NCBI GenBank assembly: GCA_032718475.1
Contig: JAUCBJ010001244.1
Coordinates: forward strand, 1 to 64,000
Direction: 5' to 3'
Origin: Nemertoderma westbladi
Taxonomy: Eukaryota > Animalia > Xenacoelomorpha
DNA: 64,000 nucleotides
Shown here in pieces: positions 6,872 to 62,029 of the stretch (positions within the stretch are counted from its first letter, which is position 1; each line of letters opens with the position of its first letter). The translations under genes were made by a program, and so were the position numbers. The notes under the pieces were generated by a model, which made no database searches, was not told the DNA's origin, and was given only the letters and a program-made list of their open reading frames with translations.

Positions 6872-7049
6872 CTCTAAACTTGGCATAAGTTATCATCAGG
6901 GAGGTTAGAAACCACCTGTTCCCTGAAACCCTTTATTAAGTTGGCGTGACAAGTAAACTCCTGATTTGCCAGGTCAGTGGAAAGTTCAGCTTGGACAGAG
7001 ATTCCACAAATATGGTTGTGGGATCTTTGATTTTGTCTATTGCTTGTTT

Positions 7050-17515: not shown

Positions 17516-17779
17516 CTTACTTTTTTATTTTACCCACTAAAAACGTTTAACAAATTATTATTGACGTTTTTCGTCATTTACCTGCCAGCAACATTATTTT
17601 AATATAAAAATGTAAAAATAAAAATTATAAAATTGCAGATAAAGAACGAAAGAGTGCCTAGATAGTAGATACCTACCCTACATAATGGTACAAAAATGTA
17701 ATGAATATTATAATAAGTAAATTTTAAAAAGAAATAAGCAACACTTACTTTTTAGTCCCAATGTATAGCACATTTAAAT

Positions 17780-18660: not shown

Positions 18661-19017
18661 AATCCATCAGGCTTTTTAAATTCGCGCCAGATAGCCAATG
18701 CATCCTGTACTTAAATGAAATGTGGTTATTTGATAATGCATGAGTGAGGTTAAGGTTTGGTATATTTCCACATTGGGCTATGCGTTTCAAAGCCATTCTA
18801 TTTGCCCTAGTAAGAGGGTCTATGCAGCTACAGGTGGCACCTCCTTTATGCTGCATGGAGGTGGCAAGTTTTCTTGATCAATGACCTAGAATACCTGACC
18901 TGACCCGCAAATTTCCCACATACAACACATCTGTCACGTTTCTTACTACAGTACCTCCAGTACTGCTCCAATTACCTTCAGATATTCCAGACACCCCATC
19001 TGATGTAACCCTTGATT

Positions 19018-20166: not shown

Positions 20167-20241
20167 CTTTACTGGTGGCTGGTCAGTCAGTTTCTGGTAG
20201 CTGTGGATCTAATTACTAGGGCAGCAGTTGGCTTTAATTAC

Positions 20242-20793
20242 TTTGACGGGATCCACGGAGGATCCCGGTTTATCCGGTTTTTAATCTACGCGTCCCCGCC
20301 GTGCGTGTGAAATGGTGAAAGAGTTATTAATCGCTGTATATAGTCCTTTGGGTATAATAGTATGAGATATGTAAGATAGGTTGATATAAGTTACTATAAA
20401 ATATAATATTGGCACTAGACGAAAGACGTTAATTAAAGTTTCGGTACTACCCTAGCTAAACTGACTTACAATAAGTGAATGAAATGATTACTGTACTGAT
20501 AATATATTGCACGGTTGGCCGTATTGCGTTACCTAACCGATGCCTTCCCCCCTATTGGCTAATAACCCTGTTGTCGCCCTTTTATCCCCCCTGAAGTGCT
20601 CCCCTTCGCCCCTGCTATTCTCTCTCTCTCAGGGGTGTAACCCCTGACCCCTATTGTGCGCGTGCTCTGTGGAGTTTCTCCTCCTGACTTTGTTGGGGTG
20701 ACACAAGGTTGACATTGGTAATCAACCTCGTGTTCCTAATATTGCTTAACGGCTCACTTTATGGAGTGGTTAGCGGAATTAAATAAGCTAACA
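20242..20793 (-). mobile_element. 5' LTR, same family as the LTR at 49073-49598
   Basis: Minus strand starts TGTTAGC; colinear similarity to 49073-49598 (ggatcccggtttatcc, cgcgtccccgccgtg, ggtaatcaacctcgtg, ataagctaaca). Confidence 0.8.
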
Positions 20794-31899: not shown

Positions 31900-32777
31900 A
31901 GTAGTAGGGTCTTGGCCGGCTCTGCGACAGTTGGACCCCACTGACACCCATTGGGTGTCATATGACACCCAATTATCACCCTATGGGTGTCATTGGGTGT
32001 CATTGGCGCCAGACTGTCTGGGTGACACCTCTCAATTAGGCTAATTAGACCCTAATTGACAGGTGTCATCAATTAATTAGTACAATTAAACCCTAACAGG
32101 TGTCATATGACTCCTAATTAGGGTTTAATTGATTATCCTAATTAATCAGACTGATTAGCGCCCTGACACACAATGGGTCGTCAGTGTTGTCCAACTGTCG
32201 CAGAGCCGGCTCAAGAGGGTGTCATAAGTGACACCGCAGCTCTTTTATTCATTAATACTTATTTATATTTAATTTTAATTATTTGCATTTTATTTTATTC
32301 GTATTTAATTCTAAATTAATTATTCATTTGTACTTTATGGGTATACAGCTCCCTTACTGGTAACTAATTACTCCAGACAGCTTTATCGTTGACCTTCGAC
32401 CCCCCAATTAGCTTTAACCAAGCAACAGCATATTAATGATAGTTGTATCCAAGCGCCCCTGCCCCCCACCCCGTGACAGCTCTGATTACTAATTACTCTT
32501 ACATATATCCAACCGCCTGCAGTTCCATAGTCTGCCGCTAGAGGGCGTATTATCTGAAAATTAACATCTTCTCTAACTTTGTTATTTTCAATTTAACTAT
32601 TTATTTGTACCTAATTTTAATTAATTATTTGTATTCTATTTGACTTTATTTATTCATTTGTACTTTATTTTAAATTAATTAATTGTATTACTTTTATTTT
32701 ATATATTGATTTCTATTTTTAGATTAATTTGGTTTTATATTACCAATGAGATCACTATGACATAATGTCTATTTTTA
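31900..32777 (+). repeat. Left terminal inverted repeat
   Basis: Reverse complement of 45193-46096 apart from a few substitutions and small indels. Confidence 0.95.
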
Positions 32778-33264
32778 ACTTTATAATGGCTATGGTATAC
32801 GGCTCCCTACTGGCAACTATCAACTACGTTCATCGGCGGGGGGCCCCTCCTCTGCCATCGCTTTTCATTAGTAGATACAACAGGCAGTGAATCTATACGT
32901 ATACCCCCCCAGGCAATTATAAATGAGTGGTCCCATCTGTTAGCAGCCCCTTTGTCTTCATTATTCAATGGCGCCAGGCGGCCTTGACTACAGCAAATCC
33001 CTATGTCGCCCAAGGCTAATGCTCAAGCGGCCCTCCATTGTTCTCGGCATAGCCGGCGTCGCTTTGCCCCTTTCCTATATCCAGGCAGCCCCTATCATAA
33101 CAATGAAGCGCCACTAATCACGCATTCCTCTCTACTAATCCCTTTCCTTTGCACCAGACCTGCTTCTGTTATACAGCCAACTCAACATAATTAGTCAAGA
33201 TGCCTACGGGGTTTCTAATATAGAATCAACAGGAGAAGTTGCCTTGGTAACCGCTTTTGCGCGA

Positions 33265-34280: not shown

Positions 34281-34809
34281 CCTGTCTACCTGACTATCGG
34301 TACCGCATCATTCGAGTTAGCCTAATGCCACTGTAGTAACGATATAGACCCTATTGAACAACAATGAATACTGCAGTTTTCATTATATATCCTACTGACT
34401 AACTGAGATCTCACACAGCGATTAGCTAAGCCTATCGTTGATTTCTATTGGTTAACGCTACCGGTACGTCTGACTTGTAGCAGACTATATCACTAGCACT
34501 ACTGCACTGACTGACTGCTGTTTATAGACCCTCTTTCCACGAATAATAACTGCCATCGCTATTGTGTCTTGGTTATCGCCACTATCTGACCGCTGGTACA
34601 CTAACACTACTGCACTAGGCACTACCGACGGCGACGGTCTGCTTTATGTTTCACTGTCTGATTGCTACAATACAGCAATAGGCCTAACTATACAAACACA
34701 GTATTGTTGCCTAGTAACCAATTAATACCTACTGTTTTACTTTATTTTTAGCAAGTATACAGTATTTTTTATTTTTTACAAATAATCAACCTATTTTTCT
34801 AGATTCAAG

Positions 34810-37800
34810 ATGCCAAGATCAACAAATAAAGTCAGCTGCCCCATCTGCGACAAAGAGACACGGAGTGATCATTTATCTCGCCACATTAAAACTCATTTCG
34901 TGCAATATAGGTGCGACTGCTGTCCGACTTGGTCTTCGGAAAAGAAGACGCTGGTTGGCCATCTTGTTTCGTGTCCTCAGGGGGGAACAGGATTTAGTTA
35001 CGTAAACGAGCCAGCCGATTGCCGCTGCGGGGATTCGCTCAGCCTGTCATCCTTTTCTGAGCATGAATGCTACACTCGACTTTTTTCGCGGAAACGCAAA
35101 ACTCCGACTACCTCCCACTCATCCCCCATCAACTCTACTCCAGAACAAGTCGGCGGCGGCGGCTCCAATAACGAACCTTCAACTTCGCGAGATTCTATTT
35201 CCCCAAACAATCCATTTCAACCACCCTCCAACGGAAGCGCACATGGACGACTGTTTACCTATAACAACGACCTCGCAGAAACAAGACTCGACGCAGAATT
35301 AACATTAAACGAAAATTTTCCACACATTCAAGAACATGTTAGTAGCCATTTACGTAGTGCCATGGGAACTTTTTTAAGAGTCTGGCTTACAATCAACATC
35401 GTAATGGAGCGTGAAACCAGCGAGGGTTTTCAAATTGAATCCTTCTGTTTTAAATCTAGCGGTAACAATAATCAAATTCTGAATAATAGCGACTTTAATA
35501 ACTGGTTTTCCGGCGCCGTCAATCGTATCGATCAACTGTTAAGTGTGTTTCTCTGCCTCGGCTCAGGTTGGCGCATAATAGCCATCGAGCGAATAACTAT
35601 TGAGATTGCGCGTTCCCAACGCAACCCCTATTTAAAGGGTCAAGGCTTCAATAATTCTAAATTATTATTAAATAAAAAATGTACCGTAAGCGTAGACTGC
35701 CCGCTGGGGGAATGCTTTAAATACGCAGTATTGGCCGCCGCAAATTATAAGAAAATTGATAGAAAACAAAATAATATTAGTAGAATTTCAACGTTTACTC
35801 CTTTCCTAAACATGTTTGATTTTTCGAATTTAAGTTTTCCGGTGGACAGAGTAACTGGTATTCCCCAGTTTCTGAAAGCCAACCCTAAATACTGCATAAA
35901 CCTTCTTTATTGGAGTAATACGGAAGAACTCTCCATTCTAAGTCAACCAGATAGCGCGCACTGTTCCGGTAAAACTGTACTAAACTTATTATTTATCGAA
36001 GCCACAAGCAAAAACCCCGCCCACTACGTAGCCATTACTAACATAGATAGATTAATAAATACAAAAGCTACTTCTACCGGCAACAAGACGCACTGCGAAC
36101 GCTGTCTCAGAGCCTTTTACACTGTCAAATCATTGGAAGAACATCGAGAGCGTTGCTATACGGGTAAACGCCAACTCGAGTATATGCCCGAAAATCTCTT
36201 GGTTAAATTTGATAGGTACGATAAGACTCTATCCCCGCCTTTCTGTATATACGCCGACATTGAAACTATTCTAGAACCTACAAACAATATTAAACTCCCA
36301 CAGAAACATATAGCTAGCGCGGCAGCCTTTTATACAGTACCAAATCAGAAATTAATTAACCCTCCTAAAACAGATGTTCAAATTTTCCGCGACGATGGCA
36401 GTAACCACGTAATGCGCGACTTTCTAACCGCTATGGAAAGTCATTGTAGGGAGTTATACGATTGGTCCATTTCTAGTACAAACACACACGCCCCCATGCA
36501 ACTCACTACTAGCCAGCAAACTGACTTTAATAACGCTACACAATGCTACGTCTGCAACTGTAATTTAACCCCCGATTCGCATAATTTAAACCTCAATGAC
36601 AATCTCAGCACCAAAGTCCGCGATCATGATCATTATAGCGGGGAGTATCGAGGGGCTGCTTGCGTCAGCTGCAACAGGAAACTTTCCCTAAAACGGAATA
36701 ATTTTTATATTATATTTCATAACTTGAGGAAATTCGATATGCATTTACTACTAAAAGAAGGAATGACCGATAGTTCTAGAACACACTGGAAAATGTCCGT
36801 AATACCAAAAAACACCGAAACTTATATTCACCTTAAAGTTAGCTTCCCAATCGATCCGAGTACACCAACAGCCAACGCTAAAGAAAGTATCTCCATTAAT
36901 TTTCTAGATTCCTATCAGTTTATGACTGCCAGCCTAGATAATCTTAGTAGCTATCTCACTAAAAATAACAGTAACCTAGCAACAGCCATACCCCATACAC
37001 TAGCTCAAATGACCCAACTCTATCCCAACATTAGCGATAACACAATAAAAAACAAGGGCGTATTCCCATATTCCTACATTCAAAATATTTCAAACCTATA
37101 CGAAACTACACTCCCCCCATTAGAAAGCTTCTATAATGATCTCAAATTGGAACAATGTAGCGCAGAAAACTATCAGCGCGCGCTTACTACTTGGGATGAA
37201 TTAAACTGTCTAACAATCTTCGACTATATGATTGGCTATTTGGTTCTAGATGTTACCCTATTGGCTGATACTTTCGAGCAGTTCCGATCCCTCTGTCTTA
37301 CTAATTATGGACTCGAGCCCGTAATGTACTTCACTGCCCCTGGATTAACTTACGACGCAGCGCTGAAATTCACGCAATCAGAAATTCAATTACTATCAGA
37401 CGCTTCCATCTACTCGGACTTTGAAACAAATATTAGGGGTGGTCTAGTATTCTTGAATACACATTCCGTAGACGCAAATATCCCCGATAAACCCGACTAT
37501 GACTCCAGTCTCCCCGAGAAATATCTAATTCCCATCGATGCGAATAACCTTTACGGCTGCGCCCTGAGCCAGAAACTTCCCCACGCTAATATTAAACTCG
37601 TAACTACCCCCATAGACCTAGCTACAGTAGACGCGAGTGGGGATACTGGTTATTATTGCATAGTTGATCTACATTACCCGAAAGAAATTCATGATTTGAC
37701 CGCCGATCTGCCTCTAGGAGCGGAGAAGATGTCAGTCCCTAAATCCTTTCTTAGCGAATACATGGAAGATCTTTGGGAGCATTACAATCTCACCGATACG

Positions 37801-38865
37801 GCTAGCTGTAGACCATACAACGATACCTGTACTAAGCTACTACTACATCAGTTTAATAAGGTTGAATACGGTATCCATATTAAGCTACTTCAACTCTATT
37901 TGAAGCTCGGTCTTAAACTTACACAAGTACATAGGGTCTACTCTTTCTCACAAAAATATATTTTCAAGGACTACATTAGTTTTAATACAAATAAAAGACA
38001 GTCGGCAAATAACCCATTCGAGGTCCTATTTTATAAGTTGATGAACAATGCCTTGTATGGGAAATGCCTCCAAAAGGTTAGAGACCGCGTTTCTTTCAGG
38101 TTATGCAATAGCGACGAACAATGCGATTTGCTCTTAGCCAAGCCCAATCACGAATCGTTTGTTGTATTTACCCCCAACTTGAGTGGTCATACTTTCACTA
38201 AAGAGGCTGTTTGCCTAAATCAGGGCGTGTTCATCGGTTGCACTATACTAGATCTATCTAAGCTACAGATGTACGACCTATTTTACAACAAACTGAAGCC
38301 TCTAGAACAAAAACTGGATTGCCAGATTCGCTGTCTAGCCGGTGACACGGATTCTCTAATGCTAAGCGTAACTAATACACCACAGCTAACCTTTCTACGG
38401 GCAATGTTTGAGGGTGGTTTCCTAGATACTTCCAACTACAGTACAACACATCCACTCTATACCATTAAACACAAAGCGGCTCTCGGCTTCGTAAAAGATG
38501 AGAGCTGCGGTTTGCAGTATAAACAGTGGGTTTTCCTTAAACCAAAGGTCTACAGTTTTCACTCCTATGATGCCCCAATCAAGAAAACCGCCAAAGGTGT
38601 ATCTAGATCGGTTGTCGCTAAGCAACTAACACACGAGGATTATGCAGACTGTTTTGTAAACGAGGCAATGCTCTTCCGCTATAACTCTACCTTCACTTCT
38701 AGAAAGCATCAAATTTTTACTGGTCATGTCTATAAGAAGGCACTAACGCTCTGGGATACGAAATCATATTGGAGTAGTAAATATAGCAGCAAACCATATG
38801 GACACTATAGCACTAAGCTTGTTAGACCGGCGAAACGAGTAGTAATCCCCCCTACTAGAATTTAA
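34810..38865 (+). CDS. Protein-primed family B DNA polymerase (Polinton pPolB), 1351 aa, with N-terminal C2H2 fingers and an endonuclease VII-like insert
   Basis: Exo motifs YADIET, FHNLRKFD, YLVLDV; pol motifs DANNLYG, KLMNNALYGK, GDTDS, KGV; CPIC..HIKTH finger; CYVC...RDHDHYSGEYRGAACVSCN. Uninterrupted ORF. Confidence 0.96.
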   Translation: MPRSTNKVSCPICDKETRSDHLSRHIKTHFVQYRCDCCPTWSSEKKTLVGHLVSCPQGGTGFSYVNEPADCRCGDSLSLSSFSEHECYTRLFSRKRKTPTTSHSSPINSTPEQVGGGGSNNEPSTSRDSISPNNPFQPPSNGSAHGRLFTYNNDLAETRLDAELTLNENFPHIQEHVSSHLRSAMGTFLRVWLTINIVMERETSEGFQIESFCFKSSGNNNQILNNSDFNNWFSGAVNRIDQLLSVFLCLGSGWRIIAIERITIEIARSQRNPYLKGQGFNNSKLLLNKKCTVSVDCPLGECFKYAVLAAANYKKIDRKQNNISRISTFTPFLNMFDFSNLSFPVDRVTGIPQFLKANPKYCINLLYWSNTEELSILSQPDSAHCSGKTVLNLLFIEATSKNPAHYVAITNIDRLINTKATSTGNKTHCERCLRAFYTVKSLEEHRERCYTGKRQLEYMPENLLVKFDRYDKTLSPPFCIYADIETILEPTNNIKLPQKHIASAAAFYTVPNQKLINPPKTDVQIFRDDGSNHVMRDFLTAMESHCRELYDWSISSTNTHAPMQLTTSQQTDFNNATQCYVCNCNLTPDSHNLNLNDNLSTKVRDHDHYSGEYRGAACVSCNRKLSLKRNNFYIIFHNLRKFDMHLLLKEGMTDSSRTHWKMSVIPKNTETYIHLKVSFPIDPSTPTANAKESISINFLDSYQFMTASLDNLSSYLTKNNSNLATAIPHTLAQMTQLYPNISDNTIKNKGVFPYSYIQNISNLYETTLPPLESFYNDLKLEQCSAENYQRALTTWDELNCLTIFDYMIGYLVLDVTLLADTFEQFRSLCLTNYGLEPVMYFTAPGLTYDAALKFTQSEIQLLSDASIYSDFETNIRGGLVFLNTHSVDANIPDKPDYDSSLPEKYLIPIDANNLYGCALSQKLPHANIKLVTTPIDLATVDASGDTGYYCIVDLHYPKEIHDLTADLPLGAEKMSVPKSFLSEYMEDLWEHYNLTDTASCRPYNDTCTKLLLHQFNKVEYGIHIKLLQLYLKLGLKLTQVHRVYSFSQKYIFKDYISFNTNKRQSANNPFEVLFYKLMNNALYGKCLQKVRDRVSFRLCNSDEQCDLLLAKPNHESFVVFTPNLSGHTFTKEAVCLNQGVFIGCTILDLSKLQMYDLFYNKLKPLEQKLDCQIRCLAGDTDSLMLSVTNTPQLTFLRAMFEGGFLDTSNYSTTHPLYTIKHKAALGFVKDESCGLQYKQWVFLKPKVYSFHSYDAPIKKTAKGVSRSVVAKQLTHEDYADCFVNEAMLFRYNSTFTSRKHQIFTGHVYKKALTLWDTKSYWSSKYSSKPYGHYSTKLVRPAKRVVIPPTRI

Positions 38866-38879
38866 TTTTATTTTTCTAG

Positions 38880-39395
38880 AATAAGAAATTGAACAACAAA
38901 ATAGAAATAACCAATAAACAGTTTACCGGAAAAAACATTGCCAAATTTGAACTAGAGAAAATTTCACAGCAAATTACAGGTCAAAGTTGCTTAAAACCAA
39001 ACATGTTTATCTACAAAGGTGACGATTCAACTATAATGCTATTTCCCAGCGGCGCAGTAACAATTGTAGGCCTTTGCAATAATTTAGCTAGTGAATTGCT
39101 TTATTTAAAACAGACTATCGGGATGCAATTACAAAATTTGAAACTTAATACCGAAACACGAACTATTATTTTTCCTAGTGTTAATTTTAAATTATTAATG
39201 AAAAAATGTGGACATCACACAATTAATAATAAAGCAATATTTATTAGCTATACCCCCGAATTATTTTGTGCGATTAGAATATATATAGGATGTGCATATT
39301 TCAGTGTATTTCATAGTAATAAAATCGTTTCCATGTGTCCAGCCGGTGAATTCCCTGAATCATTATCTATTTTACAAACTTTATTATTAAATTAG
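38880..39395 (+). CDS. Divergent TATA-binding-protein-like protein (two TBP repeats); 5' end probably spliced
   Basis: STIMLFPSGAVTIVG ~ TTALIFSSGKMVCTG; SYTPELFCAI ~ SYEPELFPGL; FSVFHSNKIV ~ LLIFVSGKVV; ~170 aa fits the TBP core; follows acceptor TTTTTCTAG (ends 38879). Confidence 0.8.
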   Translation, partial: NKKLNNKIEITNKQFTGKNIAKFELEKISQQITGQSCLKPNMFIYKGDDSTIMLFPSGAVTIVGLCNNLASELLYLKQTIGMQLQNLKLNTETRTIIFPSVNFKLLMKKCGHHTINNKAIFISYTPELFCAIRIYIGCAYFSVFHSNKIVSMCPAGEFPESLSILQTLLLN

Positions 39396-43151: not shown

Positions 43152-44843
43152 TCAGAGAATATCTGGTTTAACCCTTTTAGGGTCCGATACTATTAATGGT
43201 TGCGATAATTTTCTCTTTAATAGTTTATTGAGATAACCTTTTCTTGGGGGGTGAGATAGATTAAGGTGTGTTTGCTGCGGGAGAAATATGCCTTCTCTGA
43301 GAGAACGTTTTAGTAACTCGAAAAGGCGCGCGATGGTAAAGTCGTTGGATAGGGTGATAGTGTTGGTATTTTTCGTATTGGTGAATATAATTTCTGCTGG
43401 TTTGTTCTCGATATGAATGTAAGGACTGAGATAGTAGTGAGAGTTGGGTGGGTTGGTTATATTTATCGCGAGAAAATCGCTGCCCCTAATATTGAGACCG
43501 TTGGTGAACTGAAAAGTGGAATTCTCTTCGTCTTTCATTAAAATGGGCCAGATACCAACATATTTTTCGGATTTGAACTTATAGATAAAGGCTGCGATAC
43601 TGCTATTTATGAGATAGCGCTGGTGATTGGGGATTGTAATCTTCTTCGGTTTGAAAGCAAATTGTATAGCCATAGCCTTGAATCTGATTAGAGCCTCGCG
43701 CGCTTGAATTGTGTTAGCTATAGTAAAGGATTCGTTAAATTTTCTCTCGGTTATCTGTAAATCAATTTCTGAATCGCTGATACAACTTTGTATCGATATT
43801 CGCTCGGAAATGTTGTCTTTGTATACGTTAAGTTCATCGTAGCAGACACATTCACTATCCTCGACGGTTGAATCGAACCATTTCAATTCGCCGACCTCGG
43901 TTGGTGTAAGAAGAATCATGCCCCTAGAAGAAACAATAGCCTTTCCATCGTCAACCTCGTAGCCATTGGTGATCGCTAAATTGCGCTCGTTCCGAATATT
44001 TGTAACAAACCCAAAAGTGCAATAGTCAAAAGCAACCCAATTTCCCGGTTTTAGGACAAGGTGAGTAGTAGGATTAATAAAAGGGCGACAGATGTTTACA
44101 TATTGTTGAAATAAATTGGCGCAGGTGACGGAAAATGTGATCCATGAACTGTTTACAGTGTCTTCCAGCTTTATTAACTCGAGTGGATTCACTGGGTTAA
44201 TACTTCCATAGGTGCCAACTCTATAATTGAATCCAAAGTAATAGGAGACTTTATTGGCGAAAAAGCATGTGAGCTCATTCAATTTCTCGCCGAAAGTGAG
44301 AACATCCTTGTCGAAAAGTTTAAAGAAACGAGTCTCCTCTTCCTCGGTCGGAGTCGACGAGTTCCAGATGAGAAGAAGAATCGAGTTTGCGATACTATGA
44401 AAATCAAATAAGCGATCATCGGAGAAGAAGGAGGTTACGAGGGTGGTTAAACCCAGTAGACGATTTGCCACATCTTGGTTGATGTTTTCTCGAATAAAAT
44501 CGACTATACTAGTTGGAATCGTAAACGTCTCGGGCGAAGTAGTTAGATTGAACGTGATTTTGTTGTCCATTTTTAAAAGTTTGAAACCGTGGTTGGAGGA
44601 ATGAAGTTTATTATCGTCGAGGGTTTGATATTGTCCATCGTGAAGTTCGTAGCAGGCGCGGAAAATAAAGTGCGCGTAGTTTGCCGGAATCGGGATGGGT
44701 TGGTTTAAGGTTGTATTTATCGTTAACGGGAAGAGTTTGTTCGCCGGATCGAAATATAGACCAAACGAGTTGTCTTGTAGCATAAACTGATTTTCGTTGC
44801 AAACCAGATCGTTGCTTGAATAGCTGATTTCTGAATGTGCCAT
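43152..44843 (-). CDS. 563-aa orphan protein of the element, basic NLS-like C-terminus
   Basis: Long intact ATG-initiated ORF in AT-rich DNA; ends KLLKRKL...PKRVKP; no family motif recognised. Confidence 0.85.
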   Translation of the reverse strand: MAHSEISYSSNDLVCNENQFMLQDNSFGLYFDPANKLFPLTINTTLNQPIPIPANYAHFIFRACYELHDGQYQTLDDNKLHSSNHGFKLLKMDNKITFNLTTSPETFTIPTSIVDFIRENINQDVANRLLGLTTLVTSFFSDDRLFDFHSIANSILLLIWNSSTPTEEEETRFFKLFDKDVLTFGEKLNELTCFFANKVSYYFGFNYRVGTYGSINPVNPLELIKLEDTVNSSWITFSVTCANLFQQYVNICRPFINPTTHLVLKPGNWVAFDYCTFGFVTNIRNERNLAITNGYEVDDGKAIVSSRGMILLTPTEVGELKWFDSTVEDSECVCYDELNVYKDNISERISIQSCISDSEIDLQITERKFNESFTIANTIQAREALIRFKAMAIQFAFKPKKITIPNHQRYLINSSIAAFIYKFKSEKYVGIWPILMKDEENSTFQFTNGLNIRGSDFLAINITNPPNSHYYLSPYIHIENKPAEIIFTNTKNTNTITLSNDFTIARLFELLKRSLREGIFLPQQTHLNLSHPPRKGYLNKLLKRKLSQPLIVSDPKRVKPDIL

Positions 44844-44959
44844 CGTGATTGTGTATCGGTAACTCGTTTAGGAAATAAAAATAAATAAATACTTTTACGA
44901 AAATAATTAAAACTTTTCAGGAAAACAAAGAGACAATGATTGGGAATGTGGTGAACGGG

Positions 44960-45062: not shown

Positions 45063-45192
45063 TCAGGCGAGATAATGATTGCCCAATGTTATTCAATGGT
45101 AGACAGAATGGCGCCATTGAATAACGAAGACAAAGGGGCCGCGAGAGGAAAGATTATAAAGTTAACGATAAGGGATCTATAAACCATAGAGC

Positions 45193-46096
45193 TAAAAATA
45201 GACATTATGTCATAGTGATCTCATTGGTAATATAAAACCAAATTAATCTAAAAATAGAAATCAATATATAAAATAAAAGTAATACAATTAATTAATTTAA
45301 AATAAAGTACAAATGAATAAATAAAGTCAAATAGAATACAAATAATTAATTAAAATTAGGTACAAATAAATAGTTAAATTGAAAATAACAAAGTTAGAGA
45401 AGATGTTAATTTTCAGATAATACGCCCTCTAGCGGCAGACTATGGAACTGCAGGCGGTTGGATATATGTAAGAGTAATTAGTAATCAGAGCTGTCACGGG
45501 GTGGGGGCAGGGGCGCTTGGATACAACTATCATTAATATGCTGTTGCTTGGTTAAAGCTAATTGGGGGGTCAAAGGTCAAAGGTCAACGATAAAGCTGTC
45601 TGGATATAGATAAGAGTAATTAGTTACCAGTAAGGGAGCTGTATACCCATAAAGTACAAATGAATAATTAATTTAGAATTAAATACGAATAAAATAAAAT
45701 GCAAGTAATTAATTAAAATTAAATATAAATAAATAGATATTAATGAATAAAAGAGCTGCGGTGTCACTTATGACACCCTCTTGAGCCGGCTCTGCGACAG
45801 TTGGACAACACTGATTGACCCATTGTGTGTCAGGGCGCTAATCAGTCTGATTAATTAGGATAATCAATTAAACCCTAATTAGGAGTCATATGACACCTGT
45901 TAGGGTTTAATTGTACTAATTAATTGATGACACCTGTCAATTAGGGTCTAATTAGCCTAATTGAGAGGTGTCACCCAGACAGTCTGGCGCCAATGACACC
46001 CAATGACACCCATAGGGTGATAATTGGGTGTCATATGACACCCAATGGGTGTCAGTGGGGTCCAACTGTCGCAGAGCCGGCCAAGACCCTACTACT
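45193..46096 (-). repeat. Right terminal inverted repeat
   Basis: Reverse complement of 31900-32777. Confidence 0.95.
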
Positions 46097-49072: not shown

Positions 49073-49598
49073 TGTGACGGGATCTACGGATCCCGGTTTA
49101 TCCATTGGGTTTTCTATCCACGCGTCCCCGCCGTGTGTGAAAGGTAAAAGAGTTCTGATGTTCGGTGATATGCATAGAGGTATAATAGTCTGAGATATAT
49201 AGTATAGTATGACACAACAGGTAATATATAATGGCGGTAGCGGACGGTGACAGAAGTCCCCGTTCCACCCTACTGATCTGACTGAGTAAACTGAATGAAT
49301 GATTACAGGTTACTGGTTATATTGCACGGTGGCCTTATTGCTACTCAATCGATGCCTTTCCCCCCTCTGATTGGTTGATATCCCTGTTGGCACCCTTTGG
49401 AGTGTTTCCCTTCACTCCCTGTGTTCTCTCTCAGTTAGGGGTTTGGCCCCTGACCCCTATTGTGTGTGTCTCCTTTGGGGCCTATTGTCCCCGTTTACTG
49501 GGCTGACACGAGGTTGATTGGTAATCAACCTCGTGCTCCCAATATTGCTTTATGGCCCACTCTATGGGTTTGTGTTAGCGGAATTGGATAAGCTAACA
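49073..49598 (-). mobile_element. 3' LTR with adjacent polypurine tract
   Basis: TG...CA ends (tgtgacgg ... gctaaca); minus-strand GGGGGGGAG PPT at 49599-49607; homologous to 20242-20793. Confidence 0.85.
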
Positions 49599-49959: not shown

Positions 49960-51470
49960 CCTAAGGCTTTAATCTCTAATGCTACCCCTGTGCTATCATA
50001 CTATCTACCTACTGCTTACTAACTCTAACTATCTAACTAACTCTGCTAACTACTAACTCTTACTACTTCTAGCTCTAACTGAGAGCCTCTAACTTTCTAC
50101 TGACTCTAACTCTCTACTAAGTCTAACTAACTCCTACTAACTTTCTACTTCTACTAACTCTACTTGACTCCTCTGAGTCTACCAACTCTGCTAACTAGCT
50201 CTACTAACTCTACTCCACTAGCTCTGCTAACTCTACTCCACTAGCTCTGCTAACTCTACTCCACTAGCTCTGCTAACTCTACTAACTAGCTCTACTAACT
50301 CTACTCCACTCTTCTAACTACGTGGCGCTTGCGGTGCCCACAACCACTCTACTATATGGCACCCTATGTGCCCTCTCTGCTCTACTCTACTACCTGGCAC
50401 CCTATGTGCCCTCTCTACTACACTACTACCTCTCTAACTCTACTACCTGGCACCCTATGTGCCCTCTCTACTACACTACTACCTCTCTAACTCTACTACC
50501 TGGCACCCTATGTGCCCTCTCTACTACTCTACTCTATCTCTAACTCTCTAAATCTACTACCTGGCACCCTACGTGCCCGTCTCTACTCTTCTACTCACTG
50601 GTACCCTATGTACCCTCTCTACTACCTCTAACACTCTACTCTACTACCTGGCACCCTATGTGCCCTCTCTACTCTTCTACTCACTGGTACCCTATGTACC
50701 CTCTCTACTACCTCTAACACTCTACTCTACTACCTGGCACCCTATGTGCCCTCTCTACTCTTCTGCTACCTGGCACCCAATATGCCCGTCTCTACTCCTC
50801 TACTCCCCCTTTACGTCTCATCGCCTACACGTGACGCTCTGAGTGCCGGCAGAGTGGGTACGTTAATTATGTGAACTACTACTGACTCTACTAACTCTCT
50901 TCTAACTCTACTAACTCTTTTTGTGCCCGGCACCTCTTGTGCCCGGCACCTTCTAACTCTACTAACTCCTTTTGTGCCCGGCACCTCTTGTGCCCGGCAC
51001 CTTCTAACTCTACTAACTCTCTACTAACTCAACTAACTCTACTACTAACTCAACTAACTCTACTACTAACTCTTTTTGTGCCCGGCACCTCTTGTGCCCG
51101 GCACCCACCCTAATTAACATACCCTGCTCTTACATCAAACACGTCATCACGCCCGTGCCCCACTAAGTTCAGCGCATTCCCTACTAACTCTAACTACGTG
51201 GCGCTTACGGTGCCCACAACCCTCTACTGCCACTACTTTCTCTCTAACTAACGGTACTACATACCCTCTAACTCTAACTAACTAGCGGTACTTACGTACC
51301 CTCTAACTCTCTTCTACTAATGGTACTACACGTACCCTCCTACTAACTCTTCTACTAACGGTACTACACGTACCCTCCTACTAACTCTTCTACTAACGGT
51401 ACTACGTACCACCCTTTAACTAACTAACTAACTAACTAACTCTTACTACCTAACTTCTACCTACTCTATT
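49960..51470. repeat. Strand-skewed C/T/A-rich composite tandem repeats, probably internal 3' region of the LTR element
   Basis: ctctactaa, ctacctggcaccctatgtgccctct, gtgcccggcacc and ggtactacacgtaccc units; G-poor + strand. Confidence 0.8.
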
Positions 51471-51593: not shown

Positions 51594-53650
51594 CCTGAAT
51601 ATAGACATGGCATTGTCAAATATACACAGGGAGATGTAGGTATATTGGAATCTGTCCAAGCACGCGATGCAATAGTTGGACTACCTGAATGGCATCAATT
51701 TACTGACAATCAGGTTCTTACAGTTCACGAGATGGGGAATAGTGAGTATATTGCCGACTCCATAACATCCTTTAGTATCAGAGCTCCTGAACTCCGAGTT
51801 TTTGATAAAGTAGAGGTTTTCTTTGAATGCTTTGGTATTATAGGGAAAGTACAGAAATATCATTGTCACTTAGAACTTAAGAAATGCCGATGGATTGATG
51901 GCAATAAACGTCATTGGAAACTAAGGCCTACTGGCATTCCAATAGCTGTGGAATTTCTTACATGTAAAGCTGCGAATGGGAATATTATTGCTAAGCAGTT
52001 GTTAGATGAGGTATTTTTTCCCATTGCTGCAGGACAATTACATAAGAGATTTGTAAGCTCTCTTGAACGTCATAAAAAACCTGCAATTGTTGTATTTTCT
52101 TGTATAAGTCCTTTACAAATGAGCCGTTTCTTATTTCATTTGGTATACATAATTGGCAGCTTTGAGACAGAGTTAGATCTTCTATCTGTCGAAGATATTC
52201 GGACTTCATTCGTCAGAGCAAGTCTTATATCAAATGAGAATAATGTGCCAGCTGAGGAGGTTAATAGCTTACTTCAATCATATGTTGTGAAAGAGCTCAC
52301 TTTTCAATCCATTGGAAATATTCAACTCCAGCGTTTCCTCCATCTAGCTATTACTGGTGTTAGACAATTCTTTGCTGGAGATGGTTTGCTCTATGAGGCA
52401 ATAGCTCTCTTTTATGAGGATAGTATTCGGGACCAGTGTACTGAACAAGTAGCTAATATTGAGAGTATGAGACGCAGAAATTTAGTTGATTCACTATATG
52501 AGAAAGATGGTTTGGTATTACCTGATGAGCAGGGTGTTTTACCACAGGATCGACAATTAATAACTGCTACCCGAGAATGCCCTCTTAATTGGAAACCTCT
52601 TTAGAAATCAGTTCAAGGACAATCACAGGATTCCATTGCTGAGCAACGAGATATGTTGCAGATATTAGTAAATGCTATTGATGAATATCAGCATCCATCA
52701 CACAACATTTGTCCATTCTCCATGGTTAGTAGGAGCACCAGGTGTAGGAAAGACAACAGTAATGTTGGAAGCTATGGCTTACAGCCTTGCATGTGGTCTG
52801 AATGTTATGCTCACAGCAATTACAAGTGAGAGAGCCAGAGTATTAGGGGGTGAACATCTTCATTTACTTATGCCATTTGGTGTTCATCATGGTAAAATAA
52901 CATCTACAGGATTAGCTCAAGAATGTCTCTTAAGTTTAGCAAAAAGTCCATCTAAACTTGCTTTACTTAAACGATTGAATATCATTTTCTTTGAGGAGTA
53001 TGGCATGCTTTCTTGTGAACAACTAGCAGCCATTGATCTCATACTGCATAGAATATGTAACACACAAAGGCCATTTGGTGGAAAATTATTCATAGGATGT
53101 GGAGATAGATCATTGCCAACTAGAGCCTGTTGAGGGTCGAGTAGTTTGGCTTAGTACTCATTTTATTACAACCTTTACTGTTATGGTTTGCTGACATTTT
53201 GTTCGTAGTGCAAATGATGAAGAATTGCAACTAGTTATAACAATCTTGCGCACATCAAACCCATCCATCTCCTAATTTGATTGATCAAATGATAGGAATA
53301 TTAAAGAGACGCTGTAACTTCCTTGATAGCTGGGATGATGTCCCAGATGATGTCTTAAAGGTTGTAGGAACTCGGGCTGGTGAACAGGAAGTATTACAAA
53401 AATATCTTTCACAGCACCGAAACGAAGTTGGAACAGTTTCTATCACTAGCCATGATCAGGTAACTAGTGGGAATCCTTCGGAGGATAATTGTTGGAGGGA
53501 TACCGATTCACCTAGTATTATTAATTTTATAACAAGATCATGTCGTGAGCCACTTGATTTGATTCTGTTCCTTAACCAGATCCTCCGTTTTACATTTAAT
53601 AGACAGAGTGAGCAACCAAAGTTTTCAAATGGTCAATTGTGTCTGCATAC
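51594..53650 (+). pseudogene. Duplicate copy of the Helentron-like linker plus PIF1 helicase N-half (partner 54817-56870)
   Basis: Near-identical to 54817-56870 (offset ~3223), sharing the same premature stops; Walker A GAPGVGKT. Confidence 0.9.
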
Positions 53651-54719
53651 TAAAGTAAACTAATATACTAATAGTCGCAAGTCTTTATATAAAATATACA
53701 TTACTCTAACAATAGAATAATTGTTGTAAAAATAACACAATAAAAATTTATTACTAATATAAATTAATAACTTTTTAATTTTCAGATAAAAATTCATCAG
53801 TTGGAAAATCAAAAACGTATGAATAACGAGCCCAAAAAGAAACGCCGACACGAGAATTATACAAACTACCATCGTTAACAGTATGCCACGATCTGAGGGT
53901 GGAGAAGTTTGAGGCTATACAATACACAAACTCTACATATCAGTTACTAAGTTTGTGCAGTATATAGCGAAATTGGAGAAGGCTATAAAAACGGCTATAT
54001 TTCGGATAGAATTTGAAATATAACAAAAACATTGATTTTTTAAATAATCTATTCCATCCATTATCCCTTTTAGATAAGATCTGGAATGTTTCCATTCTTT
54101 AAACTCCAAATTTTGCGTTTTTTTAACATTTAAAGTATTAATTTAAATAAACTAGATATTTATTAACTTAATCTACGCAACATACTACAATTAAGGGTGA
54201 TGGACCAGCGAAAAATTTGGTTAGTTTTTAAAAATTTAAAGGGTAAATCTAAATACTAAATTTATATTTATTTACGTAGTGTAAACACTACAACAGCCGC
54301 GAGCAATAATTAATTCTCATACATTGCAACCAAATTATGTACCACCATTAAATCTTTCTTTTTTTATACATCATTATAAAAGAAAACAAAAGTACTGCAA
54401 AATAAAATTTTGAAGTAAATTAGACTAAATTACTAGATCTAAATTTGTTGATTAATTATTATATTAAAACAATAATGGGGAACTTTTTTACAAAAACGAT
54501 TTCAACCAATCAAATTTCACATCCCAACGATCATTTTTTCGATCATTTTTTATTTATTCGTACGACTACTAGAACTGGAGATTATACAATTTGAAGATCT
54601 CCGATGACCGATAAGTCTATTCCGTGTAATCCCGCAAAGACCGCAGGTTATTCGAGTCCCGTCTTCATAATAAGATTCTAAAAGAGAAGGAAAAAAAAAG
54701 AAACAAAGACTGCAATTAA

Positions 54720-57700
54720 GTCAAGGGAAATGGGATATCCAGAGGTTGTACATAATCTTCTAGGGTTTCCATATATCCGAACCAATGTTGAATTTGTTCA
54801 GGTATCGACCCTGACTCCTGAATATAGACATGGCATTGTCAAATATACACAGGGAGATGTAGGTATATTGGAATCTGTCCAAGCACGCGATGCAATAGTT
54901 GGACTACCTGAATGGCATCAATTTACTGACAATCAGGTTCTTACAGTTCACGAGATGGGGAATAGTGAGTATATTGCCGACTCCATAACATCCTTTAGTA
55001 TCAGAGCTCCTGAACTCCGAGTTTTTGATAAAGTAGAGGTTTTCTTTGAATGCTTTGGTATTATAGGGAAAGTACAGAAATATCATTGTCACTTAGAACT
55101 TAAGAAATGCCGATGGATTGATGGCAATAAACGTCGTTGGAAACTAAGGCCTACTGGCATTCCAATAGCTGTGGAATTTCTTACATGTAAAGCTGCGAAT
55201 GGGAATATTATTGCTAAGCAGTTGTTAGATGAGGTATTTCTTCCCATTGCTGCAGGACAATTACATAAGAGATTTGTAAGCTCTCTTGAACGTCATAAAA
55301 AACCTGCAATTGTTGTATTTTCTTGTATAAGTCCTTTACAAATGAGCCGTTTCTTATTTCATTTGGTATACATAATTGGCAGCTTTGAGACAGAGTTAGA
55401 TCTTCTATCTGTCGAAGATATTCGGACTTCATTCGTCAGAGCAAGTCTTATATCAAATGAGAATAATGTGCCAGCTGAGGAGGTTAATAGCTTACTTCAA
55501 TCATATGTTGTGAAAGAGCTCACTTTTCAATCCATTGGAAATATTCAACTCCAGCGTTTCCTCCATCTAGCTATTACTGGTGTTAGACAATTCTTTGCTG
55601 GAGATGGTTTGCTCTATGAGGCAATAGCTCTCTTTTATGAGGATAGTATTCGGGACCAGTGTACTGAACAAGTTGCTAATATTGAGAGTATGAGACGCAG
55701 AAATTTAGTTGATTCACTATATGAGAAAGATGGTTTGGTATTACCTGATGAGCAGGGTGTTTTACCACAGGATCGACAATTAATAACTGCTACCCGAGAA
55801 TGCCCTCTTAATTGGAAACCTCTTTAGAAATCAGTTCAAGGACAATCACAGGATTCCATTGCTGAGCAACGAGATATGTTGCAGATATTAGTAAATGCTA
55901 TTGATGAATATCAGCATCCATCAACAACATTTGTCCATTCTCCATGGTTAGTAGGAGCACCAGGTGTAGGAAAGACAACAGTAATGTTGGAAGCTATGGC
56001 TTACAGCCTTGCATGTGGTCTGAATGTTATGCTCACAGCAATTACAAGTGAGAGAGCCAGAGTATTAGGGGGTGAACATCTTCATTTACTTATGCCATTT
56101 GGTGTTCATCATGGTAAAATAACATCTACAGGATTAGCTCAAGAATGTCTCTTAAGTTTAGCAAAAAGTCCATCTAAACTTGCTTTACTTAAACGATTGA
56201 ATATCATTTTCTTTGAGGAGTATGGCATGCTTTCTTGTGAACAACTAGCAGCCATTGATCTCATACTGCATAGAATATGTAACACACAAAGGCCATTTGG
56301 TGGAAAATTATTCATAGGATGTGGAGATAGATCATTGCCAACTAGAGCCTGTTGAGGGTCGAGTAGTTTGGCTTAGTACTCATTTTATTACAACCTTTAC
56401 TGTTATGGTTTGCTGACATTTTGTTCGTAGTGCAAATGATGAAGAATTGCAACTAGTTATAACAATCTTGCGCACATCAAACCCATCCATCTCCTAATTT
56501 GATTGATCAAATGATAGGAATATTAAAGAGACGCTGTAACTTCCTTGATAGCTGGGATGATGTCCCAGATGATGTCTTAAAGGTTGTAGGAACTCGGGCT
56601 GGTGAACAGGAAGTATTACAAAAATATCTTTCACAGCACCGAAACGAAGTTGGAACAGTTTCTATCACTAGCCATGATCAGGTAACTAGTGGGAATCCTT
56701 CGGAGGATAATTGTTGGAGGGATACCGATTCACCTAGTATTATTAATTTTATAACAAGATCATGTCGTGAGCCACAGGAATTGATTCTGTTCCTAAACCA
56801 GATCCTCCGTTTCACATATAACAGGCAATCTGTGCAACCTAAATTTTCTAATGGTCAATTGTGTATTCTTACGAAAGTGCCAGCTGATTGTGATGATACA
56901 CTGGAAGCAGCTGTTGTCCCTAAAGGATGCCTTCGGATAAACCCTGAAAGTGCAAATACATGGCCATCAGTTAAATTATCCCAATGTAAACAGCCCCTCC
57001 TACAGTTGTTGGTTATGGCAAGAATGCGATAATGGGAAGACGTATACATACAATTCCCATTACATTACTTTTGTGCAGGCACCATACATGGTGTTCAAGG
57101 TCAAGATGCGCCATCATTAGCAACTCAAATAACTATTGATATTAAGAATAAATATAAGATTTGGCTGAAAATGCAAATAACCACGCTTATTTCTAGGGTA
57201 TTCGATCTTGGTAACTTTTCATTTGTTGGAATCATGGAGGAAACTTTCAATTGTATACGAATCTTGATGAATAAGAAATCGCCAAATCAAGATTATATTA
57301 AACACTTATTGAGAGGTCTCAATGTTCTTGTCGCTGGAGTATCCCAAGATCCTATAACATTTGAAAAACATCCTTTCTGACCATACTATATAGATATTCC
57401 TTCTTCTTATACAGGATTTGTCTATATGTTGATAAGTATTATGTTCCGTGATAAAGTTATATAGGTCAAACTATAGAACTAAAAGCAAGGTTGCTGGCTC
57501 ATCAGAACAAAACAGGTTCTGATTTTACAAGGAATTCTGCATATCACCCTTGGGCTCTGTATGCCTTTGTCAGTGGCTTTCCAGGTGAAGGAAAGGGTGA
57601 CCTTAATACTCGATACCGTAAAGAATTTGAAACTGAATGGCATGCTCTTAATAATACAGGAAAAGCTGGCGGGGATACAATTGTTGGGCGAGAGTATGTT

Positions 57701-57838
57701 TTTCAAGTTGGTGTTGAGATAGTTCGAAATTGGAATACTAAAGTATATAATGATGATGATGGAGAAGTCAACAATTTCGAGCTGAAAATATGTAAACCAT
57801 CGATCTCTCAGTATATTTTATATGCTCCTATTGCATAA
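54720..57838 (+). pseudogene. Helentron-like RepHel C-terminal half: linker, PIF1 helicase and GIY-YIG nuclease
   Basis: REMGYPEVVH...STLTPEYR; GAPGVGKTT; IFFEEYGMLS; PFGGKLFIGCGD; QFPLHYFCAGTIHGVQGQ; then GFVYML...YIGQT...ARLLAH...PWAL...GFP...FETEW. Several stops and frameshifts. Confidence 0.85.
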
Positions 57839-57924
57839 TTCCAATCTTTGTTGCAGATATATATATATATAAATCTTGCTTCTGCATAGAGTATTCCTAT
57901 TTAGAGATTCCCATACACGGAGGC

Positions 57925-58255
57925 AACTTACAACCAAGGGAGTATAGCTGCAGGCAACTTACTGCCAAGGGAACTTGGTAGACTCTAAGAACAGAGTATA
58001 GCTGGAGGTAAATTACAACCAAGGAAACTTGAGAGACTAAGAAGTGTATAGCTGCAGGCAATTTAAAACCACTAAAACTTGGTAGACTCAAAAGAGTATA
58101 GCTGCAGGCAATTTAAAACCAAGAAAACTTGGTAGACTCTAATAAAATAGGACATAGCTGCAGGCAACTTACCACAAAGGAAACTTTGGATACTCTAGAC
58201 TCTTAAGAAAACAGAATGTAGCTGCAGACAACTTACCCTCAAGGAAACTTGGGAT
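57925..58255. repeat. ~45-55-bp minisatellite downstream of the RepHel ORF
   Basis: agtatagctgcaggcaac...ccaaggaaacttggtagactc units, ~6 copies. Confidence 0.8.
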
Positions 58256-58750
58256 TTAAATTTTAAAATAAATTGTAAAATTTGTTGATACATTTAATAT
58301 GTTAACATAGTTATTATATTTTTTTATAATATATGTAATTTTCGTAATTATTTCGCAGTTGTAACAAAGTTGAGAAGAATTTCGCAGTTGTAACAAAGGT
58401 GAAGAGAAGAAGAAAAGGCATCGAAATTACGAATAATGTGATTGCCGGTGACATAAACATAACTTTCACAAAATAGACAGTAGATACCTCGTAACAATCA
58501 GAGAAACACTGCAGTAAATTGTTCAAATTGCTATAATTATTTATATTGCGCTTCGAATATTATAGGGCCTACTTCAAATAATATTCAAAAATATATTCAC
58601 TGCTGTTAAACAGATATTTATTTTAAAAATGTAGATAATTATTCTTCCCCCAAAAAACCATGCCCCTTTTTTATGACCTCCCCCACCAACAAATCCCTCT
58701 TAGGGAAATTTACTTTATTTTATCTTTTAGATTCAATAATCCCCATAACA

Positions 58751-59280
58751 ATGGCGATGATCCGGGAACTCAAACTGATCTCGGGTACCGATGACGTTGT
58801 CTTTGTGTTTCACAACAACCTCCCCTGTATCATAAACTCATCAACTCTCTACAAAAAGGATTATCTACCGCGATCCGGAGGTTCTATCGATTACTTCAGA
58901 GTCGTGGTTTCTACGGACGGGAACCGCGTTGCCTCGGGAACCTATAGGGGTGGGTCGGTGACTGTCTGGGAGTGCGGAGCGACCGGTTGGTGGGTCGTAG
59001 TGGAGGTAGCGGAGAGGGAGTTAGGGATTGGTGGGGGAGGGGATGAATGGAGGGCGGGAATAGACATAAATCCCTCCAACCGGGACGTCATAGCAACATG
59101 TGGGTCCAACAGGGGGATTTCATTAATATCAATACTGGTAGGAAATATAAGAGGTTTCTAACTGGGTGGGGCATTCTGGGAGGTTTGGTGTGTTCGGTTC
59201 AACGGGTCCCGGTTAGCCAGCTGTTCGGATGATAGTACAGTAAAAGTTTGGCTGACTGGAACCCGGGCAGTTAGGAACAC
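58751..59280 (+). pseudogene. WD40-repeat gene fragment
   Basis: STDGNRVASG...SVTVWE, INPSNRDVIATCG and, after an in-frame stop, VWCVRFNGSRLASCSDDSTVKVW. Confidence 0.7.
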
Positions 59281-60667
59281 AATGCCCGATATTGTCCTTT
59301 TGAACGCCAAAATTTCGTCGCCAGAACCAATCTAGCTGCATTTTCCCCATAGACTTACATAGGAAAAAATATGAATGCTAAGCGCATTTGATACATAATT
59401 ATCGCATTTTAAAATTTATACCACTGAATTCCTTGCAAAATATAATGGAGAGTGCTCTAACAACTGCCAAGCAACTAATTGGGTTAATCAATTATCCATT
59501 ATTACTAAGTATAATTACCAACCTACGGCTATAATAAACAATGTAGAGGGAGTCAGAGTGGTGAACTTTGTAAAGTTTGAAGTGTAGTGAGTTGCTCAGT
59601 GTGAGTGTTAGTGTTGCTTCAACTAAATGTCACAGATCTATTTTTGGAACGAAATTAAAAAGGAAAATATTTGCGTGATTCCTTGGTTACATAACAATGT
59701 TTGTTTAATTGTGAGTCAAAGAAAGTAATTGAGCATTATTATGCAGTTGTGTGGACCAATCATGGCCCCACAACAAAGAAAGTAATTGAGACTTATAATA
59801 AGGGTGAAGGAAATTGTTACCAAGGAATGGTGAAGGATACTCAGTACCTAGAACGTTCTGAAGCAGTGTTAATTGAACACAAAAACATTTTTTCAAACAA
59901 AACCATGGATATCATGAAGTCTCTTGGACTGACAACAACGGATGGTGAAGGGGAATGTTTATTAAACCAAGATTTCTGGGCTGGAAATATCACTACCCGG
60001 CCTGTAGTGATGAGTTTTTTTTGTCCCCACCATCCCATGCCTATTTACTTTTACATGTTCTTGTACTAACGTACAAGTATGTGATAGGCGTCTCATGGTC
60101 AGCTATCTCACTAAATTATGCTGCTGGCAAAGAGGAAAGGGCCAAGGTCCTTTTCAATGAGTCAGTAGCAGAAAAAGGCAAGGTTACTGTTGATGTGCTA
60201 CCCCTTGTCTTGAAAATTTCCGGCTCACAGTTGCCATCTAAAGAAAAAGGGAAGAGGGAACAGGTATCGTCATGGGAACATCACGGAACGTCTTAATCTT
60301 CAGCAAAGTAATTGTCCTGATTGGGAAAAAAGGGTTTTGGGTATATTTGAGCGAAAAAGTAACAATTTAAAAATACAAATGATATATTATATGTATGTAC
60401 ACTTTAAATAGAAAGTATAATGTGCCAACTAATTATATAAAATAATATAAAATAATTGAACTTCACAAAACACACATGCACAATATCAGTTAGCTGATTG
60501 TCGGCTCTGTCTTGTTGGCGATAACCATGGGCAGTACGTCTACAATGTGGGTAATGTACTACTAGGTAATGTTCTTATGGAGATGTACGTACAATCAACT
60601 TTTTTGATATACTGGACTTTAATTCTGAACAGCAACATGGACAAACTATCTTCCCTTCAACTACATT

Positions 60668-61010
60668 AGTAGTAGAGTCTTGGCCGGCTCGGTGACAGTT
60701 AGACCCCACTGCCTGGCGCCATACTGTCTGGGTAACACCTCCTAATTAGGCTAATTAGACCCTAATTGACAGGTGTCATCAATTAATTAGTACAATTAAA
60801 CCCTAATAGGTGTCTTATGACTCCTAATTAGGGTTTAATTGATTATCCTAATTAATCAATCCGATACGCAATGGTGTCAGTGTTGTCTAACTGTCGCCTA
60901 GAGGGCCAAGAGGGTGTCATAAGTGACACCGCAGCTCTTTTATTTATTATTGCTTATTTATTTGTACTTAATTTTAATTAATTATTTGTATTTAATTTTA
61001 CTTTATTAAT
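60668..61010 (+). mobile_element. Left TIR of a second, diverged member of the Polinton-like family
   Basis: AGTAGTAGAGTCTTGGCCGGCTC... colinear with 31900-32300 (taattaggctaattagaccctaattgacaggtgtcatc; agagggtgtcataagtgacaccgcagctc). No right TIR seen in the window. Confidence 0.9.
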
Positions 61011-61168
61011 TAAACTTTATTTATTTGTATTAAATAGAAATGGAGATCAAATTAACTAAATAAATGAATACGAGTCCATATTCTCTATAACGAATACAAG
61101 TAAACGTTTTCTGATACATAACGTCTAAAACTGTTGTGGGTCCTTACGCCCTCTTGCCTCTGATCCTA

Positions 61169-61562: not shown

Positions 61563-62029
61563 ATGGCGCTGACGGGATATGTTAACATAGTTCTCAGTAT
61601 AAACAGATGCAGTATAAAGGTCTGGCATCTTTCGGCATCATCTGCTCTGCAATGAGCGAGCTCGGTATACTAGACTGGGCCCAGCTGGCGACTCTCCTTC
61701 CCGCAGAGTTTTCCGGCATAGAGAAGACCTGCCGGGCCTTAATTCAGCATGGCCCCTACATTGGCTATATGGCGGGTCACTCTAACCTGGTCCGATCTTC
61801 CATGTACCCCCTGCTACTCACCATATGCAGGTCCTTAGGATCTAGTGAGTCTCAAGAGAGATACCGTGGAGGAAAGAACGATCGACTCTATATTGGAGCT
61901 CGATCATGGTTGACAGCTGCTAAGGACAAAATAAGGAATGCGGGCGCAGCAATGGCTGGTGCTAATGTCGAGGGGGAGGAGGTCGCCGAACGTGTCATGG
62001 CGTTTGCTCGTGAGTATCACCACAAGTGA
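61563..62029 (+). pseudogene. Putative endogenous negative-strand RNA virus (Mononegavirales-like) nucleoprotein fragment
   Basis: KGLASFGII...AEFSGIE...HGPYIGYM...VRSSMYPLLLTICRSLG parallels the paramyxovirus N core AGLASFIL...GELSTLE...APYM...FSAGSYPLLWSYAMGVG; frameshift at ~61590. Confidence 0.55.

Follow-up and report, generated by a model that had tools for sequence, protein, structure and literature searches.

The question why a second nuclease is found in some rolling-circle transposases is raised by a locus of Nemertoderma westbladi, which lies in a stretch of 64,000 nucleotides (contig JAUCBJ010001244.1 of assembly GCA_032718475.1, positions 1 to 64,000 of the forward strand) that is called the window here. 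The window is repeat-rich, eukaryotic-type DNA. At 54682-57838 it holds the remains of a Helitron-like rolling-circle transposon, a dead copy truncated at its 5' end that cannot make the protein. The copy is real but decayed and belongs to a widespread lineage of RepHel elements that carry an SLX1-type tail. This focal copy covers positions 1304-2334 of the 2354-position family profile; as it starts at position 1304, the Rep that the original prediction had named is absent from it. The features of the copy and of its surroundings are collected in Table 1.

In the three-frame translation, the last helicase motifs share a frame with GFVYMLIS across one TGA (57378-57380), and after a frameshift at about 57456 the next frame reads YIGQTIELKARLLAHQ..GSDFTR..HPWALYAFVSGFP..KEFETEW up to a closing stop at 57836-57838. 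The part behind the frameshift alone matches Pfam GIY-YIG with 28.7 bits against a curated cut-off of 22.6, and it scores 67.6 bits on the family profile, where a maximum of 6.6 bits was reached among 3000 frames from 500 shuffles of the region. The SLX1-like GIY-YIG domain that had been read at 57381-57838 behind the PIF1 helicase was therefore recovered by both profiles. The one stop and one frameshift reported with it are both in the nuclease junction, but the focal copy has three stops and five frameshifts overall, the upstream ones being stops at 55825 and 56414 and frameshifts near 56325, 56483, 56993 and 57044.

Both nuclease breaks, the TGA at 57378 and the frameshift at about 57456, are present with no differences in contigs of the sequencing runs X1, X2 and X3, which represent two studies (X2 and X3 come from the same sample); one of these runs may be the source of the window. 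Because the contigs of three runs carry them unchanged, the two breaks are decay, and assembly error was ruled out as their origin. A diverged contig of the same organism (run X2, matched by depth) spans 57219-57571 with 44 other letters and has four extra bases behind 57456, so that the frame is kept; this in-frame evidence within N. westbladi comes from one contig of one run and concerns the frameshift site. At the upstream breaks the run contigs are without the extra bases near 56325, 56483 and 57044, show an additional base at 56993 and do not agree with the window at the stop 56414. Most or all of the main contigs are free of two of these breaks, those at 56414 and 56483, which may be private to the present allele or assembly.

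Two loose ends near 54720 in the run contigs indicate that other copies go on upstream. Directly before the truncated end lies a short repeat (54557-54668) with many loose ends that is present in all four runs and is probably a SINE- or MITE-like family. The partial duplicate of the focal copy has a right junction that is a loose end in run X1, and 19 of its 23 differences fall within its last ~100 bases, in 10 synonymous and 6 non-synonymous codons. This end likely came from a diverged sister copy, and the codon pattern would fit a fragment from a sister lineage that evolved under purifying selection. A C/T/A-rich minisatellite tract (50017-51441) lies upstream of the duplicate. The minisatellite behind the closing stop is possibly the 3' region of the element; repeat searches gave no defined 3' end of the focal copy, and no convincing terminal hairpin was found among the repeats of 57800-60000. 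Helitron1 ends are marked by a 5' TC and a 3' hairpin with CTRR, with AT as the target, and HLE2 ends by short subterminal inverted repeats and a stem-loop, with TT as the target.

Table 1. Features of the focal copy and of the rest of the window (positions of the whole stretch)
Feature	Position	Strand	Remarks
Post-Rep linker of RepHel transposase (profile from 1304)	54682-55827	+	ends in in-frame TAG at 55825
PIF1 helicase (Walker A GAPGVGKT, FFEE, TIHGVQG, ISRV)	55828-57380	+	Pfam PIF1 E 3.1e-8; stops 56414, 57378
First strand of GIY-YIG hairpin (GFVY)	57381-57455	+	helicase frame after TGA
Rest of SLX1/HIGLE-type GIY-YIG domain (YIG, Arg, His, PW, GF, Glu)	57456-57838	+	after frameshift; Pfam GIY-YIG E 1.6e-6
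Partial duplicate of 54817-56878	51594-53656	+	98.9% identical; without nuclease
Very high-depth short repeat	54557-54668		directly upstream of truncated 5' end; summed contig depth up to 31,000
About 7 copies of ~50-base minisatellite	57912-58255	+	just behind stop
Decayed Rep and linker, other lineage of the family (TYFITLTCND, RFEFQ..GNKPNVH)	11918-14048	+	34% identical to focal linker
Decayed Rep fragment of RepHel family, different lineage	15159-15593	+	
Decayed helicase fragment of RepHel family, different lineage	7002-7391	-	
Decayed Rep tyrosine-region fragment of RepHel family, different lineage	~59850-60250	+	
Decayed canonical Helitron1 fragment, KRGLPHAH	~17700-18700	-	Helitron_like_N 50.6 bits; internal contrast
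Open 1359-residue ORF	34786-38865	+	C2H2 finger, endonuclease VII and protein-primed-type PolB matches (Pfam)
TBP-like ORF	38880-39395	+	E 0.002
571-residue ORF	43152-44867	-	no Pfam match
147-residue ORF	61586-62029	+	no Pfam or PDB sequence match
Non-LTR-type reverse transcriptase fragments	6435-6908, 9493-10440	+	RVT_1 E 2.3e-11 for second
Coiled-coil ORF	19018-20208	-	no Pfam match

Several lineages of the same family lie within the window, and diverged copies were found among the run contigs of the organism. Other mobile DNA is also present. The ORFs between 34786 and 44867 presumably belong to a Polinton/Maverick-like element; inverted pieces of the PolB ORF are found again at 5995-6487, 9056-9559 and 10454-10641, and a 96% inverted pair of ~900 bases (31900-32784 and 45186-46096), part of which occurs again at 60714-61029, brackets the PolB region. 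The reverse transcriptase fragments lie inside a 2.7-kb, 97% duplication (4175-6871 and 7248-9950). We take the coiled-coil ORF to be Gag-like, and the 147-residue ORF recalls, in our opinion, a nucleoprotein fragment of a negative-strand RNA virus. A 73% repeat pair is found at 20244-20793 and 49075-49598.

In such a window, crowded with mobile-element debris and with a stop and a frameshift parting the nuclease from the helicase, the GIY-YIG segment might be an unrelated insertion, a piece of a Penelope element or of SLX1 that came by chance to lie behind the helicase. Relatives were searched with a query free of the nuclease (the linker and the first half of the helicase) against 1.84 billion representative proteins, which gave 802 proteins at E<=1e-3, and the best 150, at 25-39% identity, were examined. 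The helicase end was reached in 100 of these best 150 and at least 70 residues follow it in 88; the tail counts exclude the 50 proteins without a helicase-end anchor and 12 that end within 52 residues of the helicase end. All five core residues (Y, G, R, H, E) are present in 63 of the 88 tails (among the best 150 of 802). A profile made from these 63 alone also recovers 23 of the remaining 25 tails, and 100 shuffles gave at most 4 bits on it. The domain is therefore present, with the same spacing, in 86 of the 88 relatives that extend past the helicase, again among the best 150 of 802. Among 19 hand-picked full-length relatives Pfam detected PIF1 in all 19, GIY-YIG in 14 (12 above the cut-off) and Helitron_like_N in 11, and the five missed by the GIY-YIG model are all degenerate members.

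The helicase and nuclease distances agree across 64 rows (FastTree; Mantel rho 0.595, reached in none of 999 permutations); for the window's own row the agreement is weak, with rho 0.29, p 0.02 and four of ten nearest neighbours shared. The focal stop at 57378 aligns in the middle of the conserved HPFxP linker of the relatives. Since the fusion recurs, the trees agree and the stop aligns within this linker, a separate insertion is very unlikely. The diverged contig of the same organism that spans the junction without the frameshift also speaks against it, as do the lack of an adjoining reverse transcriptase, for which the 19 proteins gave no match (what precedes the nuclease, in the window as in the relatives, is PIF1), and the lack of a RING behind the nuclease. 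The insertion reading is largely refuted by these observations, and we regard it as scarcely credible. The SLX1-type GIY-YIG domain is the in-frame C-terminus of a RepHel lineage, as the original prediction had proposed; the separate insertion named there as the finding that would overturn it did not emerge, the relatives having the fusion in one frame.

Intact relatives encode one protein of 2,200-3,000 residues with an HUH-Y2 Rep, a PIF1 helicase and a C-terminal SLX1/HIGLE-type GIY-YIG domain. The named hosts among 30 proteins looked up are Myxine glutinosa (hagfish), Styela clava (tunicate) and Cyprideis torosa (ostracod). Neither the ends of the element nor its target sites were found, so that the family is mobile by inference. 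Word-index protein searches gave no match with the linker (also at longer and near lengths) or with the canonical Helitron fragment, a viral contig collection gave none for the helicase or for the motif patterns, and a metagenome scan with protein P0003 yielded, from 18 candidates, a single weak 1.3-kb locus that was left unused. Some further traits of single members were noticed. Pfam finds an N-terminal OTU domain in P0008, and behind the nuclease of P0048 and P0122 stretches that look OTU-like and Ulp1-like were seen by eye. The contigs that encode P0027 and P0034 are unusually long, at 724 and 657 kb. Walker B carries EE and not DE in the window (FFEE); the same holds for 23 of the 58 relatives in which the pattern was found.

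The Rep of the family has the motifs F.T.TCN, R.EFQ..GN.PHxH and YxxKY, and the HUH with both tyrosines is kept in 50 of the 51 relatives in which Rep and tail are covered. An HUH-Y2 Rep followed by PIF1 in one ORF, which defines RepHel, was found in the relatives; the focal copy lacks the Rep part. When the family profile was compared with the PDB, Helraiser (7lcc) came first (2.5e-34) and Pif1 helicases next. The Rep part of P0111, as modelled (pLDDT 73), had Helraiser as its sole clear match (E 4e-7; Z 15.1, rmsd 6.0 over 468 aligned residues). The element had been called Helentron-like at the outset, and this label did not hold. Helentron Rep motif 2 is given as ExQxRGS(P/L)HxH in the available text of PMC4067079, and RG(S/L)PH is given by Thomas et al. 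for Helentrons and Helitrons. In the family, 6-10 residues separate EFQ from PHxH in 68 of 69 Rep segments, and none of the 69 carries RG(S/L)PH, neither the RGSPH of Helentrons nor the RGLPHxH of Helitron1. No AP endonuclease (Exo_endo_phos) match was obtained in the 19 full-length relatives, in which GIY-YIG occupies that place. Of the Helentron marks only the aromatic-x-R before motif 2 is retained in part, in 58 of 68 relatives if W is allowed (23 with strict F/Y; the Arg itself in 65). DUF6570, a marker domain of HLE2, was found neither at E<=1e-3 in the 19 proteins nor, for 24 proteins, among the 25 families listed out of 31, in searches run without a positive control.

Because the AP endonuclease and RG(S/L)PH are absent and motif 2 is lengthened, the family is not to be filed as Helentron or Helitron1; by these motif and domain tests it is a variant of the RepHel transposon set apart from both. 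The intact Reps of the family reach at most ~36 bits on Helitron_like_N, against 50.6 bits for a 56-residue canonical fragment in the window itself, and because of this weak match the Helitron classification may widen. We see an even chance that the family is an old, separate major HLE clade, neither HLE1 nor HLE2, with the GN-x-PHxH Rep motif and an ancestral SLX1-type tail, spread over animals and many further assemblies, with hundreds of lineages below 50% identity and repeated loss of catalysis. If so, the family would serve as a natural experiment on the reason for a second nuclease in rolling-circle transposases.

Profile and fold both place the nuclease nearest to HIGLE and SLX1 among solved structures. 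These two enzymes cleave forks, flaps and junctions, according to the part of PMC9071465 available, from which the features of the lineage were taken. Of these, the GIY-YIG hairpin, the conserved Arg, the metal-binding Glu and the SLX1-like fold were all found by alignment, profile and model. The closest PDB profiles to the tail are HIGLE 7wme (2e-11) and SLX1 (3e-11 to 2e-8), compared with 1.6e-4 for one bacterial UPF0213 protein, so that the GIY-YIG assignment passed the profile comparison proposed for it as well as the Pfam cut-off. In the predicted model of P0129 (pLDDT 91.7), residues 666-788 align to SLX1 6seh and HIGLE 7wme with Z 10.1 and an rmsd of 2.7-2.8 over 107 residues. One regular expression for a RING/PHD-like pattern found none in the 88 tails, whose median length is 146 residues.

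The core residues are lost in 25 of the 88 relatives (among the best 150 of 802), including one fully degenerate clade of nine, and at least nine state changes of nuclease integrity are counted on the tree. The degenerate relatives in which Rep is covered keep the HUH and both tyrosines in 12 of 13 cases and Walker A in all 13. Because the Rep is intact in these 12, the nuclease looks accessory, and it seems to be dispensable in some lineages. The domain might mainly bind branched or single-stranded DNA or shield the helicase end, with cutting secondary or used for drive or damage unrelated to integration. The constant length of the tail and the persistence of the domain in 23 of the 25 catalytically degenerate relatives are in line with this, but the conservation of the catalytic residues in 63 of 88 tails across proteins only 25-39% identical argues against it, and we consider such a role improbable.

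Probably, to judge by the related enzymes, the nuclease acts as an accessory cutter that trims or resolves branched donor or target DNA intermediates of transposition. By analogy with Helraiser, the Rep would nick the element's end, the helicase would peel off one strand, and the tyrosines would join the freed strand into a circle and then into the target. The tethered nuclease, if it behaves like SLX1 and HIGLE, would nick the flaps, forks or junctions left at donor or target, and this nicking would let host repair finish; in lineages without an active nuclease, host nucleases may do the cutting. What the comparisons show directly is the domain order, the one-frame fusion in relatives, the conserved Y/G/R/H/E and the co-inheritance with the helicase, together with the loss of core residues in some lineages with Rep and Walker A intact, which speaks against an essential role. 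The GIY-YIG fold by itself does not fix the substrate, because the GIY-YIG domains of Penelope and homing enzymes nick duplex DNA. The same element could use its nuclease to nick the target site, a role supposed also for the Helentron AP endonuclease and the Penelope GIY-YIG. The core residues kept in 63 of 88 tails would suit this reading, but the Rep, being of the Y2 type, can in principle nick targets without help, the solved structures nearest to the domain are those of the structure-selective SLX1 and HIGLE, and some lineages whose Rep is intact have a degenerate nuclease. The nuclease does stand at the position of the Helentron AP endonuclease, the C-terminus of the helicase (PMC4067079, in the text available), and what that Helentron enzyme does is left undetermined in the available part of PMC8788227. 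We hold target nicking to be unlikely. The processing of branched intermediates stays the preferred role, and the role of the second nuclease is directly testable because the family has intact proteins with and without the catalytic residues.

The present family is barely described in the literature searched. The original prediction had left open whether the fusion was new, and this stands in part: beyond one mention, no description of an SLX1-type RepHel lineage was found in the literature searched, which did not extend to Repbase and Dfam, where families of this kind may be listed, or to subscription journals and bioRxiv supplements, but a GIY-YIG domain is already on record in one HLE2 family. 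The HELIANO study (PMC11417382) reported, in the parts available, a GIY-YIG domain captured and transposed by HelenSM92, an HLE2 family of Sphagnum magellanicum, in a single sentence and in the legend to Supplementary Figure S8, and treated it as the capture of one family; GIY-YIG is not among the domains of its Table S11, because 'GIY' occurs once in the supplement. HelenSM92 is thus, like the present family, an HLE family with GIY-YIG, a likeness that concerns the text description alone and not the position or type of the domain. GIY-YIG is mentioned in other contexts in the available text of PMC6431247, PMC3627910 and PMC13565253.

Among known systems, the Paramecium Helitrons, the third HLE clade (PMC13085455), resemble the family as long single-ORF RepHel elements and stand outside HLE1 and HLE2, but 'GIY' and 'SLX' occur zero times in the main text of that source. 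Penelope-like elements carry their GIY-YIG downstream of a reverse transcriptase, whereas here it stands behind PIF1. Helitron1, represented by Helraiser (7LCC), is the best solved match for both Rep and helicase and shares HUH and YxxKY, but its match covers no nuclease tail, and the family lacks RGLPH. SLX1 and At-HIGLE are the closest solved GIY-YIG proteins and share the hairpin tyrosines, the Arg and the Glu; the family nuclease differs in being fused to a transposase, with a predicted cleavage activity, and in lacking, in the 88 tails, any RING-like pattern such as the C-terminal RING of animal and fungal SLX1. Helentrons (HLE2 subgroup b) are similar in having a nuclease fused at the C-terminus of Rep-PIF1, in the aromatic-x-R before motif 2 (if W is allowed) and in the OTU domain, seen here in P0008, but theirs is an AP endonuclease in place of GIY-YIG, and they have four residues from EFQ to PHxH instead of 6-10. 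A second, independent nuclease at the Helentron position, related to SLX1 and HIGLE, suggests that the processing of branched intermediates is what is selected.
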